In this document: positions 4,107 through 41,454 of the stretch, one piece after another
Position numbering within the stretch: the first letter of the stretch is position 1
Layout: every line of letters begins with the position of its first letter
Sequence record: MW741821.1
Length of the DNA stretch: 64,000 bases
From: Escherichia phage vB_EcoP_DE5
Reading direction: 5' to 3' (one strand)
Made by a program: the position numbers and the translations under genes
The notes under the pieces: model-generated
The model's input: only the letters and a program-made list of their open reading frames with translations
What the model was told of the DNA's origin: nothing
The model's database searches: none

Positions 4107-4844
4107 TTAAGCTTTCTTTTCCATTGCTTTAACAATCGCCTTACAGAAACCAGAACGAACAATATCATCTGATTCACCATCTACAATCTCAGCAAACTCA
4201 TACAGATCATGTTCATCAATAAAGTTAGTAGCCCAAGTAAGACCACTCTCACGACCACGCATATCATGCTGGTTAGTATCGCCCATGCAGAACAGCTGAG
4301 AGGTTTCTCCCAATCGAGTCATGATCGAGAAGGCTTCATCTTTAGTGGTGTTCTGGAACTCATCAACAATAACAATAGCATCATTGAAAGAACGACCACG
4401 GAGATATTCCAGAGGTACGAACTCAATGTTACTGTTACCGAGCTGGCATTCATAGAACCCCTTACCATATCGCTGAGTAATAACATCAATGATAGGCATC
4501 AGGTAAGGTTCAAACTTCTCGCGCATTCCTCCCGGAAGTAACCCAAGGGAGTTGCCCATGCCAACCGAAGGGCGACTCAGAATGATCTTCTGAATCTTAC
4601 CACTTTTCAGTGCATCAATAACCGTGGAAGTGATTACAAAGGTCTTACCACAGCCCGCAGGAGCGTCTGTGAACACAACTTGTTTAGTCTTAATAGCATT
4701 GAGTAGCTCAGACTGAAACTGGTTCTGAGGGACTACAGGCTTTGCTAAAACCACCTCTTCATACTCTCGCTTACCCTTACGAGTAACAAGAGCTTCCCGA
4801 CGAAGGTCTTTCCGTGATTCTTTCCGTGATTGACGACGACTCAT
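4107..4844 (-). CDS. phoH: PhoH-like ATPase
   Basis: 245 aa; Walker A-like APAGCGKTF, Walker B-like IVDEFQN; typical PhoH length. Confidence 0.85.
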   Translation of the reverse strand: MSRRQSRKESRKDLRREALVTRKGKREYEEVVLAKPVVPQNQFQSELLNAIKTKQVVFTDAPAGCGKTFVITSTVIDALKSGKIQKIILSRPSVGMGNSLGLLPGGMREKFEPYLMPIIDVITQRYGKGFYECQLGNSNIEFVPLEYLRGRSFNDAIVIVDEFQNTTKDEAFSIMTRLGETSQLFCMGDTNQHDMRGRESGLTWATNFIDEHDLYEFAEIVDGESDDIVRSGFCKAIVKAMEKKA

Positions 4845-5038
4845 TTACGCTCTCCAATTTCTTCGTAATGACACTCAGTAGTTAAGCAGTCTTTACAGAT
4901 TGCTGTATAAACCCTGACGTTAGTAAATCGTTTGTTCTTCCCTTTGGTTGGAGAGCCTTTGGCAAGCTCTCTGATAACCTTGTTACTTAAATGAAGGTTT
5001 GTTCCTTCACATTTAGAGCACTTCACCACAATGTCCAT
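4841..5038 (-). CDS. small zinc-ribbon protein
   Basis: 65 aa; CSKCEG...CKDC; start/stop overlap with phoH. Confidence 0.45.
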   Translation of the reverse strand: MDIVVKCSKCEGTNLHLSNKVIRELAKGSPTKGKNKRFTNVRVYTAICKDCLTTECHYEEIGERK

Positions 5039-5223
5039 TCAGTAAGAGACCACAGAGAGTCACCTATGTGGGCATTGTCATTCCTGATGAGGTCTTTGAT
5101 TTTATCAACATCAGTTAAGTGAGTCACATTCAAAATGTCCTCAACATCCGGGGCATATTTAAATATGGCAACAATACTGTTGCAATCTTCAGCGTATCTT
5201 TCTAGAACATAAACTACGCTCAT
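5023..5223 (-). CDS. hypothetical protein
   Basis: 66 aa ORF in operon. Confidence 0.4.
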   Translation of the reverse strand: MSVVYVLERYAEDCNSIVAIFKYAPDVEDILNVTHLTDVDKIKDLIRNDNAHIGDSLWSLTEWTLW

Positions 5224-5543
5224 GCGACGTTAACCTCTTTATGAAGTCTGTAAACAGCTGTCGCCATACAAGCAACAGCTTCGTTATGTGGGAGATGCAT
5301 ACCTGTAGAACCATCCCAATCTTTAAACTCGTTGTCAAAGACTCCAGTAGGTTCTGGATACAGAGCTTGCAGCTCCACTAGATCATTAGCAACTTGTTGC
5401 CATTTATCATCAGACCAGATAGGGTCATCCAACCAGTAATACAAATAGGAATGGATGATCAATTGCCTTCTATGCCGATTGATTACTTCAGCGGGACTTA
5501 TCTCACTTCCATTTGAAGTCCTAAATGTATTACTGTCAATCAT
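5220..5543 (-). CDS. small protein resembling the N-terminal Ia domain of NAD-dependent DNA ligase (LigA)
   Basis: 107 aa; HSYLYYWLDDPIWSDDKWQQV...ELQALYPE matches the LigA HxYxYxxxDxPxIxDxEYD...LE...P pattern (recalled from E. coli LigA). Confidence 0.5.
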   Translation of the reverse strand: MIDSNTFRTSNGSEISPAEVINRHRRQLIIHSYLYYWLDDPIWSDDKWQQVANDLVELQALYPEPTGVFDNEFKDWDGSTGMHLPHNEAVACMATAVYRLHKEVNVA

Positions 5544-5725
5544 TTCACAACCTTAAATTTGAATGTTGTTGGGTGATAATAATGCAATCTATTGATAGTG
5601 TGTTTTGTTTCAAGATATATCCTGCAAGAGTGGCACATGACATGGGTCAGACCAGTTACAGGATTAGGTTTAAAGTTGGCGACAGTCTTCTCTTTATTGC
5701 AGAAGCTACAGACTTTCTTTTCCAT
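5540..5725 (-). CDS. small zinc-ribbon protein
   Basis: Internal start MEKKVCSFCNKEK...CHSCR; track ORF 5540-5788 trimmed to this Met. Confidence 0.4.
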   Translation of the reverse strand: MEKKVCSFCNKEKTVANFKPNPVTGLTHVMCHSCRIYLETKHTINRLHYYHPTTFKFKVVK

Positions 5726-5939
5726 CTTTTCTCCAGTGGTCAACGAATTGCTGAAACACTTTACGATCAAATGTGAAATTACGAGCAATTCCGCATTCTC
5801 TAAAAGTGGCAGGCATATAATCTACATCACCTTCAGATGTATGACCATAGACTTGAATAAGATTCTTAATCTTATCCTTCTCTCTTCGAGGAAGCATTCT
5901 AAATGCCTCCTGAATATCTGTAATATGTTTTATCTTCAT
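5706..5939 (-). CDS. hypothetical protein
   Basis: 77 aa ORF. Confidence 0.4.
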   Translation of the reverse strand: MKIKHITDIQEAFRMLPRREKDKIKNLIQVYGHTSEGDVDYMPATFRECGIARNFTFDRKVFQQFVDHWRKDGKESL

Positions 5940-6335: not shown

Positions 6336-6992
6336 TTAACTCTCCAAAGTTTTCTTCAGAGCTGCCCATGAGATTGGGTAGAGTTTAGCCATCTCTTCAT
6401 CCAGAGATTGAGCAAACACTCGAACTTCATATTGAGCGTGAGAGGAGAGTCGCTGACGACACAACTCAAACCAGCCATACAAAGAACCAGTCCACACCCA
6501 CTCAGTGATCATCCCCTGAGGAAGAACAAATCGAGCTTGCTCCGGTGCAACAAATTCAATCAACTTGTCATATGCTGCTAGAGAAGCTTCATATGCATCG
6601 TTAATCAGCATTAATGCTTCAGCTCGCTCTCCGTCGATGAGTTGAATCCCTGAACCTGCATGGAGGTCCGAAGGTCTCGCAAAAATCTCTTTAGGGATGA
6701 AGACTTCAACTGCTCCATCTTTATACCGCCGGGACATTTCGTTCCACGAGAATCCAACCTGATGCTTGCCCAGCTGTCTCGCAATTGCGATAGGTGCTTT
6801 GCATCGGAAACTGACTTGCGGGTGTCGGAATGGGGTAACATGCTTCTCTCTTGCGAGGAAATTGATGAGACGTTCATCACGTTCATTTAAATCACCTTCA
6901 CGGGTTACGCCAAAGGAAACTCGAGCTGCGTTTACTACGCTACGATCACTTCCCATAGCTTCGATTAATGTTGCTTGTAGTTGTTCATTCAT
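6336..6992 (-). CDS. thyX: flavin-dependent thymidylate synthase ThyX
   Basis: 218 aa; FRHP...SRRY resembling the ThyX RHR...SxRY signature. Confidence 0.85.
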   Translation of the reverse strand: MNEQLQATLIEAMGSDRSVVNAARVSFGVTREGDLNERDERLINFLAREKHVTPFRHPQVSFRCKAPIAIARQLGKHQVGFSWNEMSRRYKDGAVEVFIPKEIFARPSDLHAGSGIQLIDGERAEALMLINDAYEASLAAYDKLIEFVAPEQARFVLPQGMITEWVWTGSLYGWFELCRQRLSSHAQYEVRVFAQSLDEEMAKLYPISWAALKKTLES

Positions 6993-33024: not shown

Positions 33025-33933
33025 TTATGCCGCCTGACGTGCCGCCATAATTTCAGCCGCTTTACGCAACACTTCTTCCTCTTCTGCTTTCGCCGCTTGT
33101 TCGGTACGGGTAGCAACCGTTGAAGAGATACGACCGCGCAGACTTTCTAACTTCTCCTGCATAGCTGCAACAGTCTTTTCCATTTCATCAGCGTATGAAT
33201 CGAGTGATTCTAATTCCTTGCTTGATGCGTTCATCAGATAATCATCCGAGATCGCTACCGTTGAGGCCGTGACTTTCTTGATGAGTGAATCAAAGGACTT
33301 TTTAACCTTCCCAACTTCTTCACTCAGGGCGATAGTGTTATCGCTAGTTGCGCCGTTGCGCTCATCAGCCAGTAATTTGGCTTCAATACGGATTGCATTC
33401 AAGCGTTCAACTAAAGCGTAAATATCCTGATTAAAATCTTCCTTGTTTTTCGCCGGAATTTGCAGGTGTGCCGCCACGTTGTCATTACAACCCTTGTAAA
33501 AGTTAGGGTTATCAACTTCAATTTCACGGCCTAAAGCAAAGTTTTCGAAAGCGTTTGACCAGCGAGCGCGGTTTTGTTCCATTTTGGCCTTAATTTGTGC
33601 TTCTTTCGCGTCTTCTTTAGCTTTCGCCTCACCTTCCAGATTAATCCACTTTTTACGACCATTTGCCGCATCGGTGTTAAACTTGATAGGAGTTAAGAAA
33701 GTAATTGCAGTGGCAATCACATCCATATCACGAAAACGTTCAGTTAACAAGAAGTCAACCGCCGTCTGCAATACGTCCAGCTTTTTACCGTTACTGCGGA
33801 AGTGCTGCAAGTGCCCTAACAGGAAGTTAGAAACATCTTGTTTGATCGCCGCGTTATTGCTACGAATGTTGTTAGCCAGTGCGTTAAAACCAGATTCTTT
33901 TACCAGATTAAAGATTTTAGCCATGATATTCAC
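33025..33933 (-). CDS. hypothetical protein (first gene of the minus-strand arm)
   Basis: 302 aa ORF adjacent to the central ORF-free region. Confidence 0.55.
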   Translation of the reverse strand: MNIMAKIFNLVKESGFNALANNIRSNNAAIKQDVSNFLLGHLQHFRSNGKKLDVLQTAVDFLLTERFRDMDVIATAITFLTPIKFNTDAANGRKKWINLEGEAKAKEDAKEAQIKAKMEQNRARWSNAFENFALGREIEVDNPNFYKGCNDNVAAHLQIPAKNKEDFNQDIYALVERLNAIRIEAKLLADERNGATSDNTIALSEEVGKVKKSFDSLIKKVTASTVAISDDYLMNASSKELESLDSYADEMEKTVAAMQEKLESLRGRISSTVATRTEQAAKAEEEEVLRKAAEIMAARQAA

Positions 33934-34747
33934 CTTTCAATTGTAAGGGCGCTATTGCCCCGCTCTCTATGAGCTTGTTTAAGTCACTATTAACTTAACT
34001 ATAACCGCTAACTATTCAGTAGTTATAGGTAAGTGGGGCGGTCTTATCAGGAGTTAACCTTGCCGCCCCCTTATCCGTGATGTTTCATCTGGTATCTTTA
34101 ATTAGTCGCTATAAACGAAGCCGACCTGATAGCGATGATCAATCATCACAATAAGGCAGTGCGTCCGACTCTAATTAGTTACGTTATTGTAACCGTCGGC
34201 AATATCGTTTACTTTGCTTTCGCTCTCGCCTATCCTTTTATATCAACTCTCAATCGCTAGTCATCGCCCACTACGGGATACTATTGCGAAAGAGTCATTG
34301 ACCGTCTAATGTTCCGACGTTTTATATCTTTCGGCAAGTTTACTACATAAACCGACTATGTACTTTCATCATAAGATGAATCTCAAGCCGTTCACATCGT
34401 AAACGTTCACACTAAACCTTATTGTTAAATAGCAATTTGCCACTTTTTAACCACTCCCCGCCGCTCTCAATTGAGCGTTAATTCGTCGGGATTGCCTACC
34501 CTGATTAACTTCTTTCACCGTAGCACCATGTTAGCGATGACCGCCGCTACCCTTAACCGTGGGCGATTAGCTTAAGCCTTTGCGTGTACTCGATGAATCT
34601 GTTTATCAGTGGTGACGTTTCCAGTAAGGGAATGTAAAACTGTTTACCCTGATAATTTAGGGAGTTTTACGCCGTTTTATCTGGTATGTTATCCGATGGT
34701 TATTATCATCTAACATATTCAACCGATATAGGAGAATGTTTAAATTA

Positions 34748-35372
34748 TTAAAGAGCGGTAAATCTATCAGTGTGCTTTCTCACACTATGCAACTGTTAGC
34801 CGTTGTTACGCTTTTCACTGAAGCGATGATTTGCTTAGTGAGTGCTCATTATGAATCATGTTGTTTTCGCTGTCAACCGCTTTTTAATCTTTTTTCGTCG
34901 TTCCCGCTATTGGGAGGATATATCAATCAGCTTTATTTGATTGAAGATTAAGCGGTGAGGCTTAACTTATGACTCATATTGTTAAAGAGCGTTTAGCCTT
35001 TTAAAGTGTCTGCTAATCACTGTCACATTGAAGGCTTACTGATTCATTAACAGGCCGCCTACACCTGAACTAATCGCTGCACTATGTGCCACCTTTCCCG
35101 CGATACGTTGATTTGGGAACTAGTTAGCGATGTTTTGCTAACTTGTGGTTAGTATGGACTACTTTAACCACGTTTGCAACTCTTTTTATCATCTTCTTTT
35201 AATTCCTTTCCCTTATCTCGCGTGAATCTATGCGAAAGGGCAAGATGATAAGTTTTTAAAGAGCGGGATTTTTTAAGTCATCGCTGACTATGCTCACTAT
35301 ATATCAGGCTTTTTCTGGTGTCAATACTCTTTTTAAGTATTTTCACTTTCTAGCCTGATTTTTAAAGAGCGG
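34748..35372. repeat. four dispersed copies of TTAAAGAGCG(G) within an ORF-free region
   Basis: Copies at 34748-34758, 34982-34991, 35246-35256, 35362-35372; no ORF of 60 aa or more between 33950 and 35700 except one short frame. Confidence 0.55.
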
Positions 35373-35603
35373 GGCAAGTTTCCTTGCCTTGTATGTTTTT
35401 CATCGTACCCGATGAATTGAAGTATACGCCAACCAATGTGTAATGCAATAGGGTAAAGCAAATTATTTTAAACTTTTTCATAGTGGGATAGGTAAAAGAA
35501 CGCGCACGCGTGATACATCATAGAAAATAGCTTGTAAAGCATTATTTAACGGCCTGTAACGCATCACAACGAGCTAAAGGAGGGTAAGGAATACAATCAC
35601 CTT

Positions 35604-35632
35604 AGAAATGAGAAAAGCCTCACTAGGAGGCT
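35604..35632 (-). terminator. Rho-independent terminator (minus strand)
   Basis: Hairpin AGCCUC-CUAGUG-AGGCU followed by UUUCUCAUUUCU. Confidence 0.5.
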
Positions 35633-35709
35633 TACAGGAAGGATTTAAAGCAACAGATACAGTAGGACCATAGGCATGACTACGGCACAATATAGGAGAA
35701 AGATTAAGC

Positions 35710-36087
35710 CTATGGATTTACACATTGACCTAAACCGGACTCAATTTCATTCATGGACTCATCAAAGAGCGTCAACGATGAGCGCATCAAGTGATCTATC
35801 GTGATTTGTTTACCGGTAGTTTCATTTACCAGCAGAATAGCTTTGTTATCTGATTGCACATGATCAAAATCATTTACATGCAAAATAATAACTTTAGGTG
35901 ACTGTTTACCAGTTTCATAGTTTTCTATCAAATAGGTGCACTGTAAACTGTCAACCGTAGCAGGGGAGAACATTGCAGCCTTAACACTACCCATAGACGA
36001 TAGGAGAACGCCCAGCAGGAGAACGACAAGGAAGAAGCCCACGAATACTTTTACTACAAATTTGATAATACCCATGATAATAATCAC
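35710..36087 (-). CDS. membrane protein
   Basis: 125 aa; N-terminal transmembrane segment. Confidence 0.5.
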   Translation of the reverse strand: MIIIMGIIKFVVKVFVGFFLVVLLLGVLLSSMGSVKAAMFSPATVDSLQCTYLIENYETGKQSPKVIILHVNDFDHVQSDNKAILLVNETTGKQITIDHLMRSSLTLFDESMNEIESGLGQCVNP

Positions 36088-36172
36088 CTATAGTTAGAGA
36101 ATATAAGAATAAAGCATATCAGCGACGAATAACGCCACTGTAACGACGAACAAGCAACGCCAAAAATAATCA

Positions 36173-36448
36173 CTATTCATCGTTGCTATTCTCGCCAAAA
36201 AATGCTACGCTAATCTGTTCCACTTCTTCCAGCGACAGGAGAATCCCGCGTTGGGCTAAATACTTCCCAACAGTTAGATAATCTTGCACTAAACAGACAA
36301 TAGGAAAGCGTATATTTTGAATCTCACCTTTGGAAAGAAAAGACAAATATCCAACGTCGATTGATTCATCAAAGGACAATGTAACGCCACCGTAATTATG
36401 CGTATCAATTAACGCAATAGTTTCATTTCCCATTGGTATCATCCCCAA
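36173..36448 (-). CDS. hypothetical protein
   Basis: 91 aa ORF. Confidence 0.45.
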   Translation of the reverse strand: MGMIPMGNETIALIDTHNYGGVTLSFDESIDVGYLSFLSKGEIQNIRFPIVCLVQDYLTVGKYLAQRGILLSLEEVEQISVAFFGENSNDE

Positions 36449-36689
36449 TCAGACCATGATTAAGCAGGTTAGCCAGCGACAAATCACCGTCAATATAGAT
36501 TGATCTGAAATCATCGCGGGTAATTTCGAAATCAGCAAAGGCTAGCCAGTCTTTAAGAGGCTGATATTCCATCCTGCAAAAAGTGATAACAGGCAAGATT
36601 ATCTGACCATCAAGTGTATTAAACATGATAGAGCTTCCACCAACAAAACAAGAAAAACCGTTAGATAATTTAACTTCTTTAATAGCCAT
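36423..36689 (-). CDS. hypothetical protein
   Basis: 88 aa ORF. Confidence 0.45.
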   Translation of the reverse strand: MAIKEVKLSNGFSCFVGGSSIMFNTLDGQIILPVITFCRMEYQPLKDWLAFADFEITRDDFRSIYIDGDLSLANLLNHGLIGDDTNGK

Positions 36690-36715
36690 TTTTTACACTC
36701 CCAAAAATAGATTAT

Positions 36716-37207
36716 TTACTTACTAGCCTTAATACAGTTGGCTAAATTAACGTGAACAGTATAAACAGCATTATCAGCATTATTGTAAACAGTGGTGGCG
36801 ATCATCGACTCATTAACTGGGCCATAACTCACTAGATTGGTTACAGCTTTAACATCTTCGTAACGTTGTACAGTGCCATAAGTCACCATATCCGCATCGT
36901 TATCAGTACGCTTGAGAACTAGATCACTGTTAGGCTGATTATCTAACGTTTTAGATTGAAAGAGAACGCCATCATTAGTAACGTTGCTAAATTTCATCTT
37001 TAGCACGGTATTATTGCCGTCACTATCCGCACCGTTGCAAATCATCCAACCCTTATTGATGGAACTAGAGAAGACACTAGCCGCATCAGTTGCAGGAGCA
37101 GGACTAGCGATAGCCTTATCAGAAAGAGATGTGACCAGTGCACTAACACCGATAGCTGCAACCAGTGCATAACTTGCCAGATTAACTACCTGCATTGCTT
37201 TAGCCAT
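36716..37207 (-). CDS. secreted protein with N-terminal signal peptide
   Basis: 163 aa; hydrophobic h-region then Ser/Ala-rich stretch; two Cys that could form a disulfide. Confidence 0.55.
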   Translation of the reverse strand: MAKAMQVVNLASYALVAAIGVSALVTSLSDKAIASPAPATDAASVFSSSINKGWMICNGADSDGNNTVLKMKFSNVTNDGVLFQSKTLDNQPNSDLVLKRTDNDADMVTYGTVQRYEDVKAVTNLVSYGPVNESMIATTVYNNADNAVYTVHVNLANCIKASK

Positions 37208-37421
37208 TTCGTTATTCCTTAGATAGATTCAATCAACTGTCATCAACTATATAATAAAGGAAAAGGCTGTCAACCATCTATTTTCTAACTTTCTTGCATC
37301 CTCCTGAAAACTAAAGGAATTTAATTTGCTAAACTTTCCATACTCAGAGAATCAGCTTACTTCTTATTGTTACTTTATAACACTACGGGTAACAGACCAA
37401 CAGACCAGGACAAACGGGGAT

Positions 37422-37812
37422 ACAACAACCGCAGGACAGACCACGGGGAAACATAGCAAGATAGTGCGGTAATAATATACCACTTAAATAATCATCAACT
37501 CATAAAAGAAAAGACCATTCGCTACGCTCATAAAGGCACGCTGAAAAAGAAAAGATTAAAAGAAATACAATCATCCACTTAATTAATACATACATCATTA
37601 TTGCACTCATAATCATTACTATTGAAACTATTTACATTCAAACTATGGGGGATGTGGGCTATTACTTATGGGTATTATTAGCCTCTTATGGTAGTGCCTG
37701 TACAGTGCTAGCCTTTCTCTCACTCTCTAAAGGGGAACTAAATAAACGGGTAGCTAATGAATAGGATGGTATACACGGGGAAAGAATAACGGGGAGTAGG
37801 CACGGGGAAACG
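37422..37812. repeat. five copies of (C)ACGGGGA(AA) in two clusters
   Basis: Copies near 37423, 37443, 37775, 37790, 37803; ACGGGGAAAC exact twice; track ORF 37686-37910 here is probably spurious. Confidence 0.45.
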
Positions 37813-37953
37813 CTGGAACGTGGAAGGAGGTGTAAAGGCATTGCCAATAACCCTTTTTTAAATGAGGACTCCCCCCTTTTAGGAAACGCGCGGGAAGCGC
37901 CTAGCCCCACTCGGTCAAATCAGAATTTTAAACTCTTATATATAAGGTTAAGT

Positions 37954-38127
37954 ATGAATCTAATTAAAGTATTTAGACGGATGAAGTGTAAGCACAATTA
38001 CTATCTTCTTCGTAAAGCTTACGGGGATGAAAGAATACATGGTCTCTACCTATCAACATGGAAGTGTAAGGAATGTGGTAAGTTGAGATTCAGTACATGG
38101 GTTGACAGACCAGTCAGTAGGCCTTAA
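37954..38127 (+). CDS. small zinc-ribbon protein
   Basis: 57 aa hand-translated (MNLIKVFRRMKCKHNYY...WKCKECGKL...); first plus-strand gene of right arm. Confidence 0.4.
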   Translation: MNLIKVFRRMKCKHNYYLLRKAYGDERIHGLYLSTWKCKECGKLRFSTWVDRPVSRP

Positions 38128-38434
38128 TGGAAATAATCTTTTGGTTAGTAATAGTCTTCTGTTTATTCATCTGCTTCTCTATAGCAAGATGTATCAAGTA
38201 TGACTAATGACATGGCCTTTATGAAGTCCCCTTTATGACATGCCCTTTACTTCAGCGTACACGGGTTGTTGGTATGAGGTGGCCTTTACGGGTTGGATAT
38301 GACTAGCCCTTTATACTTTTATTCAGAGGATAGAATATGAGGTTTTTAAAAGAACTACACTCCTTGATTTATAAGGACATAGTGTACTCAGTATCCCGCA
38401 ATGCATGGTTCTACCAAAAAGGTGGCAACGGTGA

Positions 38435-38725
38435 ATGGGTAGATTGAATCTTATTCAGAGGAGAAGGATTATGAATTTAATATTAGACTTTTTATCAGAG
38501 ATGGTGCCTCGGTTTAGAACGGAGACATACGCTTTCGTAATCAACAGTGACTCTGAAGATGGGATGGAAGCTACGTGCCTAGGGCGTCTTGTTGATTTAG
38601 ATGATGAAACAGATTTCGATATTACAATTGATGTGAGTAGCTTAGGTTGGCTCTTCTTCAGAGCATTCCGCACTTACAAAGTAGAAACATATAAAGATTA
38701 CAGCAAGGGAGAGACAGATGAATAA
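38435..38725 (+). CDS. acidic hypothetical protein
   Basis: 96 aa; alternative start at 38471 also has an SD. Confidence 0.45.
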   Translation: MGRLNLIQRRRIMNLILDFLSEMVPRFRTETYAFVINSDSEDGMEATCLGRLVDLDDETDFDITIDVSSLGWLFFRAFRTYKVETYKDYSKGETDE

Positions 38726-39287
38726 TTTAATCAAAGCGATGGACCTTAACGAGTATAATTCACAGCTGTGTCGCTCTGGCTGTAGTTTACAGCATTTAGA
38801 AACTATGGGAAACATCTCAGGACTAGCTGTACAAGATTTGTATAGTGGAAGTATTCTTAAACCAAATATTACGGAGAACAAAAACATGTTAGATTTGATT
38901 CATACTACTCGCCCTGATTCTAAAACTAAAACACAACCATCTACTCTGGAAGTAGTTGAATATGAATCTACTAAACATGATCACCTCCCTGACTATGCTC
39001 GTGCAATGATTGAGATGATCGAAGAAGCTGAATATGAAATGCTCCATGATTACATTACCTCCAAAGATGAATGGCATCGTGATGTTCGCATCGAAGAGGA
39101 TGGTACAGAAACAATTACGTGGATTCACAAGAGTGAGTTAGTAGACGACGCACTGCGAGACTACGAAAAATTTTTGGTCGATGGCTCTATTCTTTTAGAG
39201 GAAGAGAAGGGTGTAGAACTTCCGTGGGAGGGTGAGATAGTTACTTTAGGTAAGATGTTTAACCTGTCCGTCAGTAATTGTAAGTAA
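38718..39287 (+). CDS. hypothetical protein
   Basis: 189 aa acidic ORF. Confidence 0.5.
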   Translation: MNNLIKAMDLNEYNSQLCRSGCSLQHLETMGNISGLAVQDLYSGSILKPNITENKNMLDLIHTTRPDSKTKTQPSTLEVVEYESTKHDHLPDYARAMIEMIEEAEYEMLHDYITSKDEWHRDVRIEEDGTETITWIHKSELVDDALRDYEKFLVDGSILLEEEKGVELPWEGEIVTLGKMFNLSVSNCK

Positions 39288-39912: not shown

Positions 39913-41454
39913 ATGTCATTAGATAAACAAATTTATGAAGCTCTAACTGGTAACAACCTTAGTGTAGACGAAAAGAAAGCACTATTGAATATGTTGAAAG
40001 AGCGTGACCAATGGAGGAAGTATAATAGGATTTTGTCTTTCAAGGCGTATGACTTCCAAAAGAAATTTTATGCAGCAGGATTGAAGCATCGCTTTAGGTT
40101 CTTGTGTGCAGCGAACCGTGTTGGTAAATCTTATAGCGAGGCATACGAGTTTGCTTGTCATGTCACAGGTCGCTACCCAACTTGGTGGACAGGATATAAA
40201 TTTAAAAGACCTATCTTAGCATGGGCAGTTGGTATTACAGGGGATTCCACAAGGAAGGTATTGCAAAAGGAATTGTTTGGTACACCTATCGGAAAGGATA
40301 CAAATTTATTAGGGACAGGTGTCATTCCTCGTGATGCTATCGTCATTGATACGATAGAACGAGATGGTAACAAACTTCAAATCGTACAAATCAAACATCA
40401 AAATGAGAGAGGAGAGTTTGACGGTTTAAGTACATTAGAATTCCGTTCAACCCAACAGGGTGAACACACATTGATGGGTGCAACAGTTGACTACATTTGG
40501 TTAGACGAAGAAGATCCATACGAGTCTATGGCTATATTCGCACAGTGCGTCACACGTACACTCACAACTAAAGGTCTAGTTACAATTACAGCTACACCAG
40601 AGAACGGTTTAACTGAACTGGTAGATAAATTTATGAAAGGTGAAGGAGATGAGAGCACAGGTTCTCTATATTTCCAGAATGCCTCTTGGTGGGATGCTCA
40701 TGCAGACCTAGGTGGACATATCACTGACCAAGATATAAAAGATATGACTGAAGGTATTCCAGCGTGGCAGTTAGAGATGCGTTCGAAAGGTATGCCATTG
40801 TTAGGAAGTGGTTTGATTTATGATGTATCGGATGACACAATTAAATGTGAACCATTCGAAATTCCTGATACGTGGAAACGTGTCTGTGCAATTGATATTG
40901 GTATTGATCACCCAACTGCTGCTGTTTGGACAGCTTACGATGCAAACACGGATACTATCTATGTTTACGACTCATATAAAGAAGGTGGCTTTACTCCAGT
41001 GTATCATGCTCCAGCTATTAATGGTCGTGGTCAGTGGATTCCTGTCATCCTACCGCACGATGCGGACAATATTGAGAAAGGTAGCGGTTCATCTGTTGCT
41101 CAATTCTATAAGAATGCAGGAGTTAACGTACAGAGTGAGACCTTCTACAACAAAATTGGAATGGATGGTAAAAAGAACTTCTTTGTAGAACCGGGAATCA
41201 CAGATATCCGAGAAAGAATGATGAGTGGACGCTTTAAAGTCTTTAACACAGCCGCTAACGCTAAGCTATTCGAAGAGAAAGCTAGATATCACCGTAAGGT
41301 TGGTAAGATTATTAAAGAACATGATGACTTAATGGATGCAATGCGCTATTCAGCGTGCTCTGTTACACATCGTGGTCGCTCTAAGCATGACGTTAGCTAC
41401 GGAAGTGCTTCTTTGTATGAGGCAAACGTAAGCAGATGGAATCAGAGTTACTAA
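39913..41454 (+). CDS. terminase large subunit
   Basis: 513 aa; Walker A-like AANRVGKS, acidic nuclease-type residues downstream, precedes portal. Confidence 0.8.
   Translation: MSLDKQIYEALTGNNLSVDEKKALLNMLKERDQWRKYNRILSFKAYDFQKKFYAAGLKHRFRFLCAANRVGKSYSEAYEFACHVTGRYPTWWTGYKFKRPILAWAVGITGDSTRKVLQKELFGTPIGKDTNLLGTGVIPRDAIVIDTIERDGNKLQIVQIKHQNERGEFDGLSTLEFRSTQQGEHTLMGATVDYIWLDEEDPYESMAIFAQCVTRTLTTKGLVTITATPENGLTELVDKFMKGEGDESTGSLYFQNASWWDAHADLGGHITDQDIKDMTEGIPAWQLEMRSKGMPLLGSGLIYDVSDDTIKCEPFEIPDTWKRVCAIDIGIDHPTAAVWTAYDANTDTIYVYDSYKEGGFTPVYHAPAINGRGQWIPVILPHDADNIEKGSGSSVAQFYKNAGVNVQSETFYNKIGMDGKKNFFVEPGITDIRERMMSGRFKVFNTAANAKLFEEKARYHRKVGKIIKEHDDLMDAMRYSACSVTHRGRSKHDVSYGSASLYEANVSRWNQSY

Follow-up and report, generated by a model that had tools for sequence, protein, structure and literature searches.

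Organisation of the cassette at the right genome end

The analysed window is a stretch of 64,000 nucleotides from Escherichia phage vB_EcoP_DE5 (sequence record MW741821.1), and this study concerns a cassette of small minus-strand genes located at positions 35710–37207 (Table 1). The results strongly support the view that the cassette is an early operon at the genome end, which is driven by the host RNA polymerase, terminated by its own signal and composed of five translationally coupled genes. The sequences also strongly support the prediction that products of this operon are directed to the inner membrane and the periplasm. A preliminary description, made from the sequence alone, had listed four genes. 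All four minus-strand open reading frames (ORFs) were found at 35710–36087, 36173–36448, 36423–36689 and 36716–37207, but a 28-amino-acid (aa) membrane peptide had been missed, which raises the count to five, and two of the starts had to be changed. The start of gene 5 is most likely the ATG at 36075, giving 121 aa and not 125 aa; an AGGTGA sequence lies 8 nt upstream of this codon, and the annotated homologues in Bas90, EP335 and Bas92 are also 121 aa long. The start of gene 3 is most likely at 36433 (86 aa, not 91 aa). The 125-aa and 91-aa readings require starts that probably lie too far upstream. As read from the sequence, each ORF is preceded by a Shine-Dalgarno-like sequence, and starts and stops overlap, the start of gene 3 with the stop of gene 2 and the start of gene 4 with the stop of gene 3.

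Table 1. Features of the cassette and its surroundings, with median pairwise ratios of nonsynonymous to synonymous substitution rates (dN/dS) for the coding regions
Feature	Position in the window	Strand	Description or basis	Median dN/dS
Sigma-70 promoter TTGACA-16-TATAGT, A/T-rich stretch before it	37246–37273	−	Scan, 11/12 consensus matches	
Gene 1 (barrel protein 1), 163 aa	36716–37207	−	Homologue of the C-terminal part of phi32_128 / SU10 gp125; short form without the ~125-aa cytoplasmic N-domain	0.18
Gene 2, 88 aa, acidic (isoelectric point, pI, 4.5), soluble	36423–36689	−	Homologue of phi32_127; public label 'polymerase'	0.22
Gene 3, 86 aa, very acidic, soluble	36173–36433	−	Homologue of SU10 gp122 and phi32_126	0.13
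Gene 4, 28-aa single-pass membrane peptide MNSDYFWRCLFVVTVALFVADMLYSYIL	36094–36180	−	Conservation in relatives	0.26
Gene 5, 121 aa	35710–36075	−	Homologue of phi32_125 / SU10 gp121; public label 'terminase'	0.14
Intrinsic terminator	35603–35633	−	7-bp stem AAGCCUC/GAGGCUU, 5-nt loop, U-rich tail	
ORF-poor spacer, ~1.78 kb, not part of the cassette	33934–35709	−	ORF listing	
Direct terminal repeat, 193 bp, single collapsed copy	37710–37902		Marks the physical right end of the virion DNA; SU10 ends map here	
N-domain of long-form gene 1				0.18
Neighbouring 302-aa gene				0.04

The coding status of the five ORFs was assessed on codon alignments of 12 loci (the window, SU10, Bas90, phiEco32, an IMG/VR contig, NJ01, ECBP2, KBNP1711, SU7, Bas88, EP335 and Bas92), and dN/dS was taken as the median of the pairwise values. 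The values of 0.13–0.26 obtained for all cassette genes indicate purifying selection, and hence that these are real genes. The cassette proteins nevertheless change several times faster than the product of the neighbouring 302-aa gene (0.13–0.26 versus 0.04). In the SU7 clade, the 163-aa protein is only 45% identical, as against 94% for the large terminase. The gene 4 peptide is annotated in Bas90, Bas88 and Bas92 and was left unannotated in SU7. It is 82–100% conserved in 10 loci, with dN/dS of about 0.2–0.26, and a recognisable homologue (MVIHKYFLHCLIAFCIMLF.YDM) occurs in the SU7 clade; thus the peptide is kept in all three genera. The small soluble proteins have pI values of 4.2–4.5, and the net charge of gene 3, computed for the 91-aa reading, is about −9.

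The −35 element of the promoter lies 629 bp from the physical genome end. The same TTGACA-16-TATAGT sequence was found upstream of gene 1 in SU10, Bas90, phiEco32, the IMG/VR contig, Bas88, EP335 and SU7, and weaker variants were read by eye in NJ01, ECBP2 and KBNP1711. The terminator, which the preliminary description had placed at 35604–35632, is present as a hairpin at 35633–35615 followed by a T-run, with a free energy of about −9.3 kcal/mol. Its stem is conserved among relatives and its loop is variable; in the SU7 clade, an unrelated GC-rich hairpin with a T-run occupies the equivalent site. In the SU10 paper, this unit is classed as early, with one predicted sigma-70 promoter upstream of CDS125 and a terminator that follows CDS121. 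For phiEco32, macroarray data place the rightmost gene cluster among the early genes, as the 7-11 paper summarises.

Megablast of window positions 33900–38000 matched 98 phage records, nearly all of them phiEco32/SU10-type Escherichia phages (Kuravirus and relatives, Gordonclarkvirinae), with an identity of 80–95% in nearly all of the records. Judged by these matches and by public annotations, the window is a Kuravirus genome (phiEco32/SU10-like podophage), and the ORFs of the cassette are the counterparts of SU10 gp121–gp125, Bas90_0123–0127 and phiEco32 phi32_125–128. The first 193 bp of the SU10 record are identical to its last 193 bp, a terminal repeat of this length being reported in the SU10 paper, and both copies map to window positions 37710–37902. 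Therefore, the window is a circularly permuted assembly in which one repeat copy has been collapsed, and in the virion the linear genome ends on its physical right side with the cassette as its final transcription unit. The minus-strand early arm and the plus-strand late arm look adjacent because of this collapse. The original placement of the cassette between an ORF desert and the late arm is thus an artefact of the permutation. Its isolated position is real as far as the ORF-less spacer (33934–35709) is concerned, but it means simply that the cassette stands at the genome terminus.

Two further observations concern the DNA near this end. A TCCCCGT(G) motif is repeated inside the terminal repeat and just inward of it (window 37400–37450 and 37769–37810); these copies may serve in packaging or in the recognition of the ends. 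Between the terminal repeat and the cassette promoter lies a very hydrophobic 38-aa ORF (37500–37616, minus strand). Its first ~24 residues are conserved in several relatives and the remainder is disrupted by frame changes or stops, and by its sequence it is probably not a gene.

Predicted envelope proteins and their public labels

Gene 1 begins with MAK, followed by about 26 uncharged residues and then AIA|S, and its maximum Kyte-Doolittle mean over 19 residues is 2.06. The 163-aa protein had been credited with a clear signal peptide and two cysteines. The hydrophobic N-terminus and two invariant cysteines (Cys56 and Cys157, exactly two) are indeed present, but an ordinary cleaved leader is not what the relatives suggest, as the same segment is an internal transmembrane helix in the 286–290-aa orthologues. 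This long form occurs in about 42 related records, and the sequence KKNKKQPIKP stands just before the membrane segment; under the positive-inside rule, the C-terminal barrel would therefore lie outside the cytoplasm. The mean pairwise identity within gene 1 is 84% in the membrane core (NLASYALVAAIGVS), 63% in the barrel and 49% in the linker. Because the membrane core is the best conserved part, unlike in ordinary leader peptides, it was read as a membrane anchor with a sequence-specific role, and a functional anchor is more likely here than an ordinary leader. In the AlphaFold2 model built on the family alignment, residues 41–160 form a short helix and eight strands, with predicted local distance difference test (pLDDT) values mostly of 81–92 in the barrel block and one 10-residue block at 72.

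The N-terminal ~125 aa of the long form represent a phage domain in its own right (phrog_15368), which is widespread, with 147 phage records containing it. It occupies 6470–6871 of the Bas90 locus and is also present in SU10; in the window it is missing at about 37186–37198. On its own it makes up a 122-aa protein in Phapecoctavirus phages such as PNJ1809-36, and in Klebsiella siphophages such as VLCpiS8c the C-terminal part fused to it is a different one. The cysteines of this domain are not conserved outside the kuraviruses.

The preliminary description had also noted a hydrophobic N-terminal segment in the 125-aa ORF now read as gene 5. This segment was confirmed, with a maximum 19-residue mean of 2.94 (computed on the 125-aa ORF) and a conserved VKA|A site after it. 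In the SU7 clade, the orthologues carry a canonical Sec signal peptide of 20–21 residues, MKIKLAVC(A/S)ALFA(V/I)SSVSHA|A. Therefore, the mature domain of gene 5 is predicted to be periplasmic. It contains exactly two invariant cysteines, Cys46 and Cys118, and the AlphaFold2 model from the family alignment comprises an N-terminal helix and seven strands, with pLDDT of about 89–93 in the mature part. In the models of both genes 1 and 5, the cysteine pair sits in the first and the last strands. As these strands adjoin in a closed up-and-down barrel, a barrel-closing periplasmic disulfide is plausible in each exported protein. The possibility that the two barrels are sequence paralogues was rejected, since hhalign detected no profile similarity between them. 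In the metagenomic relative P0115, a sequence resembling the gene 4 micropeptide stands in place of the gene 5 leader.

The character of the gene 1 segment also bears on lysis timing. The segment would then act as a signal-anchor-release-like element and the periplasmic barrel would bind the holin or sense superinfection, by analogy with the T4 RI antiholin. About 57% of the membrane segment consists of Ala, Gly, Ser, Thr, Asn and Tyr, its hydrophobicity is lower than that of gene 5, and it is more conserved than the barrel, all of which would suit such a role. The periplasmic domain of T4 RI is, however, helical and not a beta-barrel, there is no sequence similarity to T4 RI, and the early operon is located far away from the lysis genes. 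Moreover, a published survey has already placed the phiEco32 spanins in known spanin families. Control of lysis timing is thus a very improbable function for the cassette. A two-component spanin identity was rejected as well, since no cysteine is found at the gene 5 cleavage site (VKA|A or SHA|A) and gene 1 is beta-rich.

All products were scanned against Pfam, NCBIfam, PADLOC and PDB sequences, and none gave a match above noise to a core function or a known domain. The PHROG matches were to families of unknown function, two of them labelled 'terminase' and 'polymerase'. The structure and homology searches that had been proposed for the 163-aa protein returned no known family and a generic eight-strand barrel. 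Among 1.84 billion representatives, the gene 1 hidden Markov model found five representatives of its own family, along with weak multi-repeat matches to giant Big_9/cadherin adhesins; the latter were discounted as an effect of composition and repeat sums, gene 1 itself having no Big_9 match. Foldseek searches of viral models with gene 1 gave confident matches solely to its own family. The closest structural matches to the barrel are de novo designed idealised barrels, which define the fold class only. An up-and-down barrel of similar size is found in PliC/MliC lysozyme inhibitors, lipocalins, avidins and the Cap15 barrel, but identity is 3–13% in most of these matches, and there are no family motifs and no Pfam match. 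An identity as a PliC/MliC inhibitor was accordingly rejected, as there is no match to the family profile and the likeness is confined to fold class. The Cap15 barrel, moreover, is cytoplasmic, in contrast to the barrels of the cassette, which are predicted to be periplasmic.

Public records nevertheless name the 121-aa protein a terminase and the 88-aa protein a polymerase, and these names are carried by RefSeq records, Pharokka-style annotation, PHROG labels and BASEL records. Neither product contains such a Pfam or NCBIfam domain. The 121-aa product carries a signal peptide ahead of a beta-barrel-like fold, and of the two PHROG families that match it one alone is labelled 'terminase'; the real large terminase is encoded at 39913–41454. 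In GenBank KM044272, both SU10 genes are given as 'hypothetical protein'. The names are almost certainly wrong, and on the sequence comparisons they look like propagated errors. Other labels on small early ORFs are likewise unsupported, such as 'ABC transporter' at 38718–39287 (189 aa, phrog_12176), and in relatives the labels 'tail protein' and 'DNA helicase' on short ORFs also appear to be propagated errors.

Distribution, variation and relocation of the cassette

In tblastn searches, 93 phage records contained the 163-aa family and 86 the 121-aa family. A large terminase at least 80% identical was found in 97 records, including a 1.5-kb fragment. Hence about 93 of about 96 related E. coli Gordonclarkvirinae records contain the cassette family, and all matches come from phages of Escherichia or Shigella that belong to Kuravirus, Suseptimavirus (SU7) and Nieuwekanaalvirus (EP335). 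A scan of IMG/VR gave five loci, mostly of known phages. The Salmonella phage 7-11 has the same genome plan at its right end, with validated early promoters. Its right end holds no equivalent envelope cassette, its first early genes are without a hydrophobic export signal, and its terminal gene gp151 does not resemble the 302-aa gene with which the main early arm of the window begins. In a published table, phi32_127 and phi32_128 are among the genes common to the phiEco32 subgroup, and no counterpart in 7-11 or GAP52 is given for them. As judged from these comparisons, the cassette is a near-universal addition specific to the lineage of the E. coli Gordonclarkvirinae. Of the pattern expected for an accessory module, the restriction to one lineage was therefore observed, but sporadic presence was not. 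The compositional signal is weak at most: the GC content is slightly low (39.3%, against 42.2% in equally sized windows; z = −1.6, 6.5th percentile), but the trinucleotide distance is ordinary (84th percentile).

All genes gave tblastn and PHROG matches, and their synteny holds in 11 related loci. Among the 12 aligned loci, the gene 1 barrel is present in all and the gene 5 barrel is intact in 11, and the gene 4 peptide was detected by tblastn in 10, a divergent form being present in SU7 and Bas88. The soluble genes are more variable, with one to three per phage (88-aa type in 76 records, 86-aa type in 77, gp123 type in 21). The 88-aa and gp123/SU7_117 types are distant paralogues (hhalign probability 72%, E = 3.4e-5). 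A paralogous relation of the 88-aa and 86-aa types was rejected, with no BLASTP match and an hhalign probability of 3.7%.

The operons of phiEco32 (phi32_125–128) and SU10 (gp121–125) share with the cassette of the window the gene order, the promoter, the terminator and the place by the terminal repeat, and their products are homologous at 84–94% for the exported and 66–98% for the small soluble proteins. The window differs in having the short gene 1, owing to an in-frame loss of 381 bp relative to Bas90 and SU10 that removed the N-domain, and in missing a gp123-type gene. The identity to SU10 in successive genes is 94%, 70%, 98% and 90%, and this mosaic points to recombination within the unit.

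In Bas92 (67.7 kb; positions 4451–5810 and 400–460 of its locus), the terminal site does not hold the unit. A stretch equivalent to window 37428–35669 has been deleted, with a GGTC microhomology at the junction, and the unit has been re-inserted in the main early arm, some 6 kb inward, near the position that corresponds to window 31395. The moved segment starts 5 nt upstream of the −10 hexamer (37256) and ends in the descending terminator stem (35618); in its new place, the unit has a broken terminator hairpin and no promoter that could be recognised as its own. An extra 65-aa ORF, Bas92_0086, came along with it, and a repeated AGGAGGTA ribosome-binding sequence flanks the insertion. Bas94 probably shares this arrangement, judging from its gene positions. 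A clade whose genome shrank by about 9 kb has thus kept the unit and moved it as a block, which indicates that its genes work together and are useful. In ECBP2 (about 1216–1330), a stop after MWFIKFIIKTVVGFFLVVLLLGVLLSAMGNA leaves nothing of gene 5 but its signal peptide; therefore, the mature barrel is dispensable for the propagation of ECBP2.

These variants bear on the possibility that the cassette controls the entry of the phage's own genome, in analogy to the pre-early genes of the first-step transfer of T5, with the terminator and the promoter-rich spacer marking a pause. Acting at the membrane, products made from the leading end would complete or regulate the uptake of the remaining genome. 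Such a role would fit the terminal position, the strong inward-pointing promoter about 630 bp from the end, the membrane-directed products and the almost universal presence, as well as the fact that the terminator is followed by a conserved non-coding spacer of ~1.8 kb with more strong promoters and repeats. The ~1.7-kb non-coding stretch described earlier was confirmed as an interval without ORFs. On the minus strand it carries near-consensus sigma-70 promoters at 35324–35296 and 34876–34848, which start the main early arm, and the SU10 paper places three sigma-70 promoters in the corresponding gene 120/121 spacer. However, the Bas92 unit lies ~6 kb further in and is without its own promoter, yet this phage was isolated and plated, and ECBP2 does without the mature gene 5 product; both variants argue against an essential entry role. 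Moreover, 7-11 has the same genome layout but no equivalent of the cassette, and the explanation presupposes that the right end enters first. Entry control is therefore considered improbable.

The spacer itself is more conserved than the coding cassette; in comparison with Bas90, identity is 98.3% at 33902–35253 and 94.4% in the stretch that holds the cassette. Its plus strand carries four copies of a motif ending in TTAAAGAGCG(G/T), starting at 34741, 34975, 35249 and 35355. The SU7 annotation places a 66-aa CDS, 94% conserved in Bas88, within the equivalent spacer. An Rfam scan of 33500–38500 gave nothing real.

Possible function in the infected cell

The anatomy of the cassette as a terminal early unit with envelope-directed products can be regarded as highly probable. 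The preliminary description had further proposed an accessory module for host interaction, exclusion or defence inhibition. The unit's own promoter and terminator, its restriction to one lineage, fast evolution, variable middle genes, movement as a block and the loss of gene 5 in ECBP2 are in line with an accessory character; near-universal presence and the terminal position are not. It had also been suggested that conservation in all relatives with ordinary core functions would speak against an accessory nature: the cassette is near-universal, but no core function was detected in it.

The early timing, the predicted envelope location, the restriction to one lineage, the fast evolution and the block movement together form the pattern to be expected of proteins that alter the envelope of the infected cell in favour of the phage. 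Fast evolution within a single lineage would suit proteins that deal with competitors or with the host surface. The function that we favour, tentatively and as a possibility rather than a probability, is superinfection exclusion, the best-known role of this kind, or envelope conditioning. The strong sigma-70 promoter near the right end drives the five coupled genes up to the intrinsic terminator. Three of the products are predicted to reach the envelope as a conserved trio, composed of the anchored or secreted eight-strand barrel of gene 1, the 28-aa membrane peptide and the Sec-secreted, barrel-like protein of gene 5. The trio would condition the envelope of the freshly infected cell, and the conditioned envelope would block genome entry by later-arriving phages, or cell-wall damage from them. 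The small acidic cytoplasmic proteins would serve as host-takeover or anti-defence factors. The trio has been kept across three genera while the middle genes vary.

Several points weigh against exclusion or envelope conditioning. No sequence similarity or specific structural similarity to a known exclusion protein or another characterised family was detected in Pfam, NCBIfam, PDB or PADLOC. The barrel fold is generic, as its best matches are de novo designed barrels, and the export, topology and disulfides of the proteins are predictions. The high conservation of the mature gene 5 domain, 64–66% even across genera, speaks against an arms race involving this protein. Moreover, the near-universal cassette may serve an infection step that belongs to the core of the lineage rather than competition.

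A functional parallel, along with other early superinfection-exclusion proteins, would be T4 Imm and Sp, two small proteins made early in infection, of which the one sits in the inner membrane and the other in the periplasm, and which both act on the envelope of the host. The cassette would resemble them in combining an early promoter with a predicted membrane peptide, an anchor and periplasmic domains. There is, however, no sequence similarity, and no product gave a Pfam, NCBIfam or PDB match in the test for Imm or Sp homology. T4 Sp is helical, in contrast to the beta-barrel folds of the cassette, which moreover forms one operon with extra soluble genes. The unit also resembles a moron in having its own promoter and terminator and a slightly lower GC content, in being movable as a unit and in standing outside replication and morphogenesis. 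It differs in that it occurs in nearly all members of the lineage and not sporadically, only its content and position being variable, and in that the phage is virulent, so that the unit serves the lytic cycle and not lysogenic conversion.

A different emphasis would make the cassette an anti-defence or host-takeover module, in which the acidic proteins would neutralise cytoplasmic defences such as restriction and the envelope proteins would inhibit membrane-associated defence or stress systems. As the first unit transcribed from the genome end by the host RNA polymerase, it would be well placed for this purpose; its soluble proteins are small and acidic, their gene copy number varies, and two of their families are distant paralogues. 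According to the BASEL paper, Gordonclarkvirinae resist restriction-modification systems remarkably well with no known inhibitor, which also speaks for this explanation, although its authors favour DNA modification as the cause. In addition, no match was found in PADLOC, Pfam, NCBIfam or solved structures, and it is the exported components that are conserved, rather than the soluble ones. An anti-defence function of the whole module is on balance rather unlikely.

Beyond superinfection exclusion and envelope conditioning as known from other phages, the trio might represent an unrecognised three-part envelope system made first from the putative leading genome end, in which the membrane peptide and the secreted barrel would join an anchored barrel whose transmembrane helix is invariant in sequence. 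Such a system would gate the passage of DNA across the inner membrane, opened for the phage's own entry and then closed to others, or would disarm an envelope-located host function, and it would constitute a new class of mechanism without homologues outside E. coli Gordonclarkvirinae. This proposal is speculative and must be viewed as doubtful.

The unit, its promoter, its terminator and its early class were already known from the SU10 paper, and a published pangenome paper describes all core early genes of the group as hypothetical or of unknown function. The phiEco32 and SU10 literature assigns no function to these genes and does not note the export, the folds or the 28-aa peptide. What is new is the predicted envelope targeting, the two predicted barrel folds with paired cysteines, the conserved micropeptide and the paralogous variable middle genes, together with the relocation of the block, the modular N-domain and the apparently wrong public labels. 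The cassette thus comprises new protein families within a familiar kind, that of the early accessory envelope proteins of a virulent phage.

Summarizing, kuraviruses are common coliphages and therapy candidates whose early biology is almost unknown, and their first transcription unit is now narrowed to two predicted exported beta-barrels of the disulfide type, one micropeptide and a few acidic proteins. Orthologues provide natural variants in which the N-domain is present or absent, gene 5 is truncated or the unit is relocated. If the trio does exclude other phages, this would bear on the design of phage cocktails, and if the acidic proteins lie behind the resistance to restriction, this would settle a point left by the BASEL study.

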